Assembly (NCBI GenBank): GCA_017528345.1
Contig: JAFXOX010000068.1
Span: forward strand, 2,097 to 66,096
Reading direction: 5' to 3'
Length of the DNA: 64,000 nt
Source: Desulfovibrio sp.
Lineage (GTDB): Bacteria > Desulfobacterota > Desulfovibrionia > Desulfovibrionales > Desulfovibrionaceae
Shown here: piece by piece, positions 31,327-32,201 of the stretch
How positions within the stretch are numbered: position 1 is the stretch's first letter
Layout: every line of letters starts with the position of its first letter
The notes under the pieces: generated by a model
Told to the model about the DNA's origin: nothing
Databases searched by the model: none
Seen by the model: only the letters and a program-made list of their open reading frames with translations
Translations under genes and position numbers: made by a program

Positions 31327-31727
31327 CAGATATTCGGCCTGTTGACCCAGCTGAGAGAAAAGGGAGAGACCGGGCACTCTTTCGTAATTTGCAAATGCGC
31401 CATACGGCGTCAGCCAGAGTGAAAAACGAAGGGAAAAAACGACGCAAAAGAGGGAGTTGCGGCAGGAAACAGGACAAAGAACCGTCCCTGCGCGACAAGA
31501 GGCAAGAAAAAGGCACAGACCTTATTTCTGCATTCACTGATCAAAAAGGAAAAAAAGACGGTGTGCTCAATCAGGCAGGAATGCGCTCCAACTCCTCTCT
31601 TTTTTGCGAGGAGAGTATGGAGCAAGAAAAGCAAAAAGGCAAGAAAATATCCTCTTTTCGACAGGACTGCAGCATTTACCTTTTTCAGGTGAATCACAAA
31701 GTCGTGGCGTAGACTTTGGTCAACCAC

Positions 31728-32047
31728 TTGACATCCTCCCCCGCCTAAAGTCGGGGGATTCCTAGCGGAGGCAGACTGACGTCAGCAACCCTAGGTGGGT
31801 TCCTGCGAAAACTGGACTGCCCAGAGGAATTAGCTTGGTTTTTGCTGTCAAATTCCCTCAGTGGGGAATTTTACGGCTGCGAACCAACCACCTATTCCCG
31901 AAAGGCTCTCACTATCTCTCCACTGGCTGACACGGCATGCCCTGCCGCCAAGAAGTAGTTTGAAGCAGGAAAGGCAAAAGGGCAAGAAAATTCTAGTGGT
32001 GCGCCTTATATCCTCCCCCTAAAGGGAGAGGTTTTACGGCGCATTGG
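31728..32047 (-). mobile_element. Non-autonomous IS200/IS605 mini-element, copy 1 (320 bp)
   Basis: On the minus strand it follows TTTAT, has left- and right-end hairpins and ends GAGGATGTCAA. It carries the tnpB C-terminal remnant LAAGHAVSASGEIVRAFRE* and is about 90% identical by eye to 56089-56409. Confidence 0.88.
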
Positions 32048-32201
32048 ATAAAAGATGCATGCTCAGCGTCTTCCATACGTCTTTGTGCCTTCCTTCGCCA
32101 AAAAAGTATCACATCACAGATTCAGGAGGCTGACAGGACACTGTTTTGTTGATATTTGGCGGTCCTCGCTCTGAAAAATCGAAGCGGGACCGCCTTCAGG
32201 T

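Follow-up and report, generated by a model that had tools for sequence, protein, structure and literature searches.

The intergenic element at positions 31728-32047 (copy A) is very probably a non-autonomous, protein-less derivative of the IS605 group (IS200/IS605) and of the PATE kind. It is most likely a stranded insertion, which would have been moved in trans and which includes a putative omega-RNA scaffold. It lies in a window of 64,000 nucleotides, the whole stretch of DNA analysed here, which corresponds to positions 2097-66096 of contig 18 (C18) in a draft Desulfovibrionaceae genome of 2.9 Mb, 85 contigs and 50.9% G+C. The window holds two further copies, one well preserved (copy B) and one strongly decayed. 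The features used below are the following.

32048-32052, minus strand: TTTAT target motif of copy A (ATAAA on the plus strand), part of the flank and not of the element
31728-32047, minus strand: copy A of the mini-element, 320 nt, aligned end to end with copy B and included in the family alignments
31986-32047, minus strand: left end, element positions 1-62, possibly up to ~78
32000-32043, minus strand: subterminal imperfect hairpin in the left end
31918-31951, minus strand: what is left of the terminal tnpB codons (..LAAGHAVSQWR for copy A, LAAGQAVSACGE for copy B), the best conserved of all blocks in the family
31807-31917, minus strand: long imperfect hairpin of ~110 nt, specific to the mini-elements, standing for a ~28-nt stem of full-length elements
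31728-31806, minus strand: right end, with the penultimate and terminal hairpins and the cleavage motif TCAA
31737-31758, minus strand: terminal hairpin of the right end
31728-31731, minus strand: TCAA cleavage motif
31708-31727, minus strand: flank directly 3' of the TCAA of copy A, GTGGTTGACCAAAGTCTACG, candidate guide for an omega-RNA that would run past the right end
56084-56088: TTTAT target motif of copy B
56089-56409, plus strand: copy B of the mini-element, 321 nt, whose insertion site has paralogues with the exact empty site
55976-56088 and 56410-56503: host repeat of copy B
8365-8653, minus strand: third copy, strongly decayed (~70% identity), preceded by TTTAT and ending in ..GAATGTCAA

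The limits of the element are sharp. In a MAFFT alignment of the reverse-complemented 31650-32130 with 56010-56490, the similarity of copies A and B is unbroken between the first base that follows TTTAT and ..GGATGTCAA, with unrelated flanks on either side. This is what the first-pass annotation had described, namely a reverse-complemented 31728-32047 matching 56089-56409 end to end, with a similarity that starts after TTTAT and stops at TCAA, and MAFFT and BLAST both bear out the end-to-end match. The divergence of ~10% given there was too high: BLAST finds 92% identity over 316-317 nt (E = 4e-128), and the family alignment gives 92.5% identity and three gap columns for the pair, hence a divergence of ~7.5%. 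A 22-mer taken from the right end is present twice in the window, where shuffles predict none. Terminal inverted repeats were not found in the mini-element, which has local hairpins only and no end-to-end inverted repeat. The longest ORF overlapping copy A has 53 aa and no ORF is conserved.

Both copies are intergenic, as had been stated: copy A lies between a gene for a GAF-domain protein (30328-31377, minus) and a 151-aa gene (32202-32657, minus), and copy B, downstream of polA, is flanked by an ORF at 55615-55905 and by the 3' end of polA (56531-59257, minus). The placement of copy A at the edge of an accessory island is not sustained, because two related species (genomes G422 and G347) have the 151-aa gene and the GAF gene in synteny: copy A marks no such edge. 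The 151-aa gene, which is CCDC90-like, is adjoined by a 1949-aa ORF (32743-38592, minus) without Pfam match. The decayed third copy is found directly downstream of a 1202-aa ORF (4760-8368).

The origin of the mini-element is indicated by full-length relatives. Pairwise alignment with one of them (locus L053) divides it into a left end (position 1 to ~62-78), the last tnpB codons (~79-130), the imperfect hairpin of ~110 nt (131 to ~242) and a right end (243-321) with two hairpins and TCAA. The ~11-17 terminal tnpB codons, ..PASNSFLAAGQAVSACGE in copy B against ..AALNILAAGHAVSACG in L053, are the sole coding remnant. Hairpins of like sequence stand on one strand at both ends (left ..GGGGGAGGATAT.., right ..GGGGGAGGATGT..). 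The left end is 80-96% identical to those of the full-length IS605 elements L045 and L052-L056, and the tnpB remnant 91-94% identical to tnpB 3' ends, both of full-length elements and of five decayed ones in the same genome; the right end, over 79 nt, is 76-81% identical to full-length right ends of Desulfovibrionaceae, and up to 95% in some. These full-length elements, exemplified by JAISKK010000068 (Desulfovibrio sp. Hs463_bin41), URBN01000004 and DXFI01000254 (Ca. Desulfovibrio intestinigallinarum), also share the TTTAT/TTAC flank and the ..GGATGTCAA end with the mini-elements; they differ by their length of ~1.35-1.76 kb, by a tnpB with or without tnpA, and by a short stem in place of the long hairpin.

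In two of these genomes (G336:C40 and G341:C4, the latter being URBN01000004 of the congeneric uncultured Desulfovibrio sp. UMGS847) the matches to left end, tnpB 3' end and right end are ~1.7 kb apart. The order in G336 is TTTAT, left-end hairpin, tnpA on the opposite strand, tnpB (409 aa) and a right end ..GGAAGTCAA. The cognate TnpA matches NF033573 (IS200/IS605 transposase, 1.6e-42) and PF01797, with the REP-transposase model of NCBIfam far below the IS200 model in score, and the cognate TnpB matches NF040570 (3e-111), PF12323, PF01385 and PF07282. These two elements and loci L052-L058 all have mini-like left and right ends around tnpB, with or without tnpA; in L056 and L058, which are devoid of tnpA, tnpB directly follows the left end. 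A TnpB scan of species-representative genomes gave matches in Desulfovibrio sp., Ca. Desulfovibrio intestinigallinarum and Mailhella sp. The reading as a mini IS200/IS605 element thus holds, since full-length tnpA/tnpB elements have the same left end, tnpB codons and right end.

IS605 relatives from Tepidimonas, Comamonas, Thermomonas and Gulbenkiania match the last 37 nt of the right end with up to 97% identity. This 37-nt terminus (..CTAGGAATCCCCCGACTTTAGGCGGGGGAGGATGTCAA) has 97% identity between the Desulfovibrionaceae mini-elements and elements from Betaproteobacteria and Gammaproteobacteria, against a TnpB identity of only ~60%; the loci having it are L061, L065, L071, L073, L080, L083 and L097, with right ends near 2726-2831. 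Judged on these alignments, the conservation of the terminal hairpin across those classes is unusually strong.

Element positions 63-96 were considered as a captured host promoter, a reading that we rejected: the left end itself runs through GGAATTTTTGCCTTT, and promoter capture is not needed because the remainder aligns with the tnpB codons ..AALNILAAG in tnpB-only full-length elements. A consensus scan called no sigma-70-type promoter at the element. What had suggested promoter capture was a T/C-rich motif of 36 nt (TTCTTGCCTTTTTGCTTTTCTTGC..CATACT; 31613-31648, minus), 80 nt beyond the right end of copy A, which is 86% identical to element positions 57-92 and is kept upstream of the GAF gene in the element-free G422 and G347; this motif may derive from an old copy of the element, may be a host promoter, or may resemble the element by chance.

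The middle of the element is its own. The hairpin of ~110 nt has no match in any of 86 full-length or other loci, and, since it is common to the mini-elements, they stem from one mini ancestor rather than being simple deletion products. The earlier proposal of an internal deletion therefore stands for the shared junctions and falls for a simple deletion, a ~110-nt hairpin being found where full-length elements have a stem of ~28 nt.

Copy B gives the clearest view of the insertion. Its host is an intergenic repeat of ~170-220 nt in at least seven copies, partly tandem on C45, which contains GCGGATAGCAAATTTATATTCTAC...TTTTTTTGGCAATTTTGGTTCGAAACTTGGG. Paralogues of this repeat lie at C19:12590-12840, C45:24940-25250, C45:650-800, C44:21490-21640 and C59:9040-9190. 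Four of six paralogues are uninterrupted, ..AAATTTAT being joined to ATTCTAC.. without target duplication: C19 and two C45 paralogues have ..AGC(A/G)AATTTAT joined to ATTCTAC.., and C59 has ..ACGTTAT joined to ATTCTAC..; in the remaining two the motif itself has diverged. These four therefore display the empty site that had been predicted for copy B (GCAAATTTAT followed by ATTCT), and the uninterrupted paralogues show that TTTAT is the target and not a part of the element, and that it is not duplicated. Together with the boundaries common to the family, they confirm the role claimed for TTTAT, as the common right boundary confirms the claimed end at TCAA.

The flanks of copy A, like those of copy B, are repeats themselves. 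The sequence into which copy A is inserted, of ~110-180 nt (31655-31727 and 32048-32155), exists in two copies, the paralogue being at C15:62325-62434. The empty allele proposed for copy A, CATCTTTTAT joined to GTGGTTGACC, was not found in this exact form; what was found is the C15 paralogue, collinear minus the 320 nt. Compared with the joined flanks of copy A, C15:62300-62460 is gapless across the junction, the 30 nt around it being diverged (ATCTTGCAC followed by GTACTCG). This collinearity is consistent with an exact insertion of 320 nt, and is weaker evidence than that of copy B.

Two of 111 congeneric genomes, G422 and G347, have both flanks of copy A in synteny, at 77-81% identity. They are devoid of copy A and of ~180 nt around it, so that they do not give the exact junction: only 10-20 nt separate the terminator of the 151-aa gene from the conserved sequence upstream of the GAF gene. 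Copy B is also missing from them. As both copies are absent, the insertions postdate the split from these two closest sampled relatives. The two-copy host sequence of copy A is likewise absent from this intergenic region in G422 and G347, thus an earlier insertion or rearrangement preceded the mini-element.

The genome holds 45 BLAST matches to copy B, about 14 near-complete copies and about 30 fragments. Fourteen copies are alignable over most of their length, at 72-95% identity, and all 14 have their left boundary after T(T)TAT and their right boundary at GGATGTCAA; TTTAT is exact in 8 and TTAT present in 11. The nearest to copy A is C70:364-675 (94.6%), followed by copy B. An exact 24-mer from the junction of hairpin and right end had no match in the searched collection of genome contigs, because the family is too diverged for an exact-word scan. 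Beyond this genome the mini-element is present in 22 of 401 sampled genomes of the order, from nine genera and one family throughout. At least ten other Desulfovibrionaceae genomes hold mini-elements of the same internal architecture, a congeneric species (G355) having more than 30 copies; the same boundaries are found in 13 further complete copies from eight other genomes, and copies of other genomes are preceded by TTTAT, TTTAC, CTTAC or ATTAC. The mini family has spread as one unit within and between Desulfovibrionaceae genomes. The suggestions that the mini-elements form a family and that the element itself transposed as a unit are thus well founded, the former on these copies and genomes, the latter on the internal architecture which they have in common.

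We then consider the folding of the element. RNAalifold gave a poor consensus on the whole alignment of 25 sequences; it was run on two parts of this alignment with ribosum scoring, and the pairs were then counted on the alignment. The consensus has 85 pairs in 11 helices, with 89.2% of the cells paired, against 42-49% when the partners are slid by 1-3 columns. Changes on both sides affect 29 pairs (15-22 in the slid controls) and 90 cells (19-33), and the observed pairing values were reached by none of 500 shuffles. Compensatory changes are mostly found in the left-end hairpin, the penultimate hairpin of the right end and the long hairpin: they occur in helices 1-2, helices 10-11 of the right end covary, and helices 7-9, which form the long hairpin, are 85-88% paired and have them as well. 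This count does not separate RNA stems from stems of single-stranded DNA, both of which are expected in IS605-type elements. Single sequences fold moderately better than shuffles (z = -2.5 and -1.4). Rfam gave nothing relevant, whether for the whole window at gathering thresholds or for the region of copy B at E <= 1. The putative omega-RNA scaffold has its homologue in the tnpB 3' end plus right end of full-length elements, save that the central stem is replaced by the hairpin of ~110 nt. By analogy with TnpB systems the mini-element probably carries an omega-RNA; that the whole scaffold is retained is an assumption.

IS608 of Helicobacter pylori and ISDra2 of Deinococcus radiodurans are the mechanistic models of IS200/IS605 transposition: IS608 inserts 3' of TTAC and ISDra2 3' of TTGAT, without duplication, and the right end of IS608 is cut after TCAA. 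The mini-elements resemble both by their insertion 3' of a short motif without duplication and by subterminal hairpins of the same orientation at both ends, and resemble IS608 by the TCAA at the right-end cut; their full-length relatives have the tnpA/tnpB organisation of these models. They differ from them by having no genes and by their target, TTTAT (TTAT/TTAC in relatives). By analogy, the Y1 transposase TnpA of full-length relatives would move the element in trans as single-stranded DNA ("peel and paste"): it would recognise the two hairpins of the same orientation and cut after TTTAT and after TCAA, the top strand being excised and inserted. The retained 3' part would be the omega-RNA (reRNA) scaffold of TnpB. 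According to the literature on TnpB, an RNA from the tnpB 3' end and right end that reads into the flank guides this protein (PMC8612924; PMC10055086). On this published model, a transcript leaving the right end of copy A would have the flank GTGGTTGACCAAAGTCTACG for a guide (these 20 nt after TCAA are as given in the first-pass annotation), and a TnpB made elsewhere might cut the TTTAT-flanked empty site, favouring retention of the element. Copy A arrived after its lineage split from the two closest sampled relatives.

In the 85-contig assembly no intact cognate tnpA or tnpB was found, tnpB occurring only as fragments and frameshifted copies. Five independently decayed tnpB 3' ends have the canonical short right end (C14, C79, C28, C40 and C6). 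Intact TnpA is found in G013, G355, G324, G341 and G336. Given that the assembly has no intact cognate tnpA/tnpB, and that the copies are 5-30% divergent from one another, the most likely view is that copy A is stranded and slowly decaying. Since the assembly is a draft in 85 contigs, collapsed repeats could conceal an intact autonomous copy. The start of C71 (C71:183-1353) is occupied by a cognate IS605, full-length but decayed: its tnpA is ~81% identical to that of G336 and spread over three frames, and its tnpB is limited to residues 1-252 and frameshifted. Another element, of the IS607 type (C17:7527-9266), has a serine recombinase fragment and a tnpB split into frames of 259 aa and 167 aa; it has a low G+C and is unrelated to the mini family.

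Could the copies rather be a family of host genes for a structured small RNA, or domesticated regulatory elements, maintained because they serve the cell, for example as promoters or terminators or in the regulation of neighbouring genes? The conserved stems with compensatory changes could be read in this direction, as could several blocks that are invariant in copies only 70-80% identical overall, the orientation of copy A towards the GAF-domain gene, and the ~45 copies and fragments kept in a genome without the proteins to use or move them. We nevertheless hold a host function to be decidedly unlikely: as mobile DNA would be, copies are absent from the orthologous loci of close relatives and inserted inside other repeats; their ends are homologous to those of active-looking IS605 elements, and many are truncated or decayed. 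Conservation, for its part, may stem from constraints that acted on the master copies when they transposed. A further proposal, that the mini-elements are a self-propagating "guide-RNA-only" lineage with a newly gained domain of ~110 nt, unseen in the sampled tnpB-bearing relatives, and persist across Desulfovibrionaceae genera, some of their genomes having no cognate TnpB or TnpA, seems unlikely to us. If true, it would point to a TnpB-independent function of the RNA or DNA hairpins, for instance in host regulation, as a promoter or terminator, or through another protein that uses them.

The alternatives to unit transposition, i.e. two independent decay products of a full-length IS605, or a segmental duplication, are very improbable. 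The genome certainly has decayed IS605 remnants (C14, C79, C28, C40 and C6, and the frameshifted tnpA/tnpB at the start of C71), from which independent decay would be conceivable; all mini-elements, however, have the same junctions and a long hairpin that is found in no full-length element, the same unit occurs in other genera, and A and B have unrelated flanks. As to a conventional MITE of DDE-transposon origin, or a RAYT-mobilised repeat of the REP/BIME type, the mini-element has the general aspect of both, being short, non-coding, hairpin-rich, multi-copy and intergenic. Both are contradicted by the empty sites and by the homology of the ends, which match IS605 left and right ends: terminal inverted repeats and target-site duplication are both absent, a length of 320 nt with asymmetric ends is unlike the 20-40 nt of REPs, and the score of the cognate TnpA against the REP-transposase model does not point to a RAYT. 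We give hardly any credence to either. The IS605-derived mini-element thus remains our reading of copy A.

PATE, for palindrome-associated transposable element, is a term that comes from work on Haloquadratum (PMC3119063), and PATE-like elements of Geobacillus stearothermophilus "often encode omega-RNAs" (Meers et al. 2023, PMC10055086). Like PATEs, the mini-elements are protein-less and multi-copy, keep the left- and right-end hairpins of IS200/IS605, are presumably mobilised by TnpA in trans and, as far as their sequence indicates, retain the region giving rise to the TnpB guide RNA. Unlike them, they are found in Desulfovibrionaceae, target TTTAT, have the ~110-nt hairpin for the ~28-nt stem and, in this genome, are not accompanied by an intact cognate tnpA or tnpB. 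PATE-like IS200/IS605 derivatives being already described, the mini family adds a member in Desulfovibrionaceae, and its long hairpin in place of a short stem is its only unusual trait.

IS200/IS605 biology as known is unchanged by these observations. What they add is a well-delimited IS605-derived mini family of gut and termite-associated Desulfovibrionaceae, documented by its exact boundaries, its target motif TTTAT, a candidate TAM of TnpB, and its paralogous empty sites. For annotation, about 45 intergenic repeats of this genome are explained, and small-RNA signals near genes become easier to interpret. Besides, with a ~110-nt hairpin substituted for a short stem, the mini-elements could be a natural test case of how much of an omega-RNA scaffold is replaceable.
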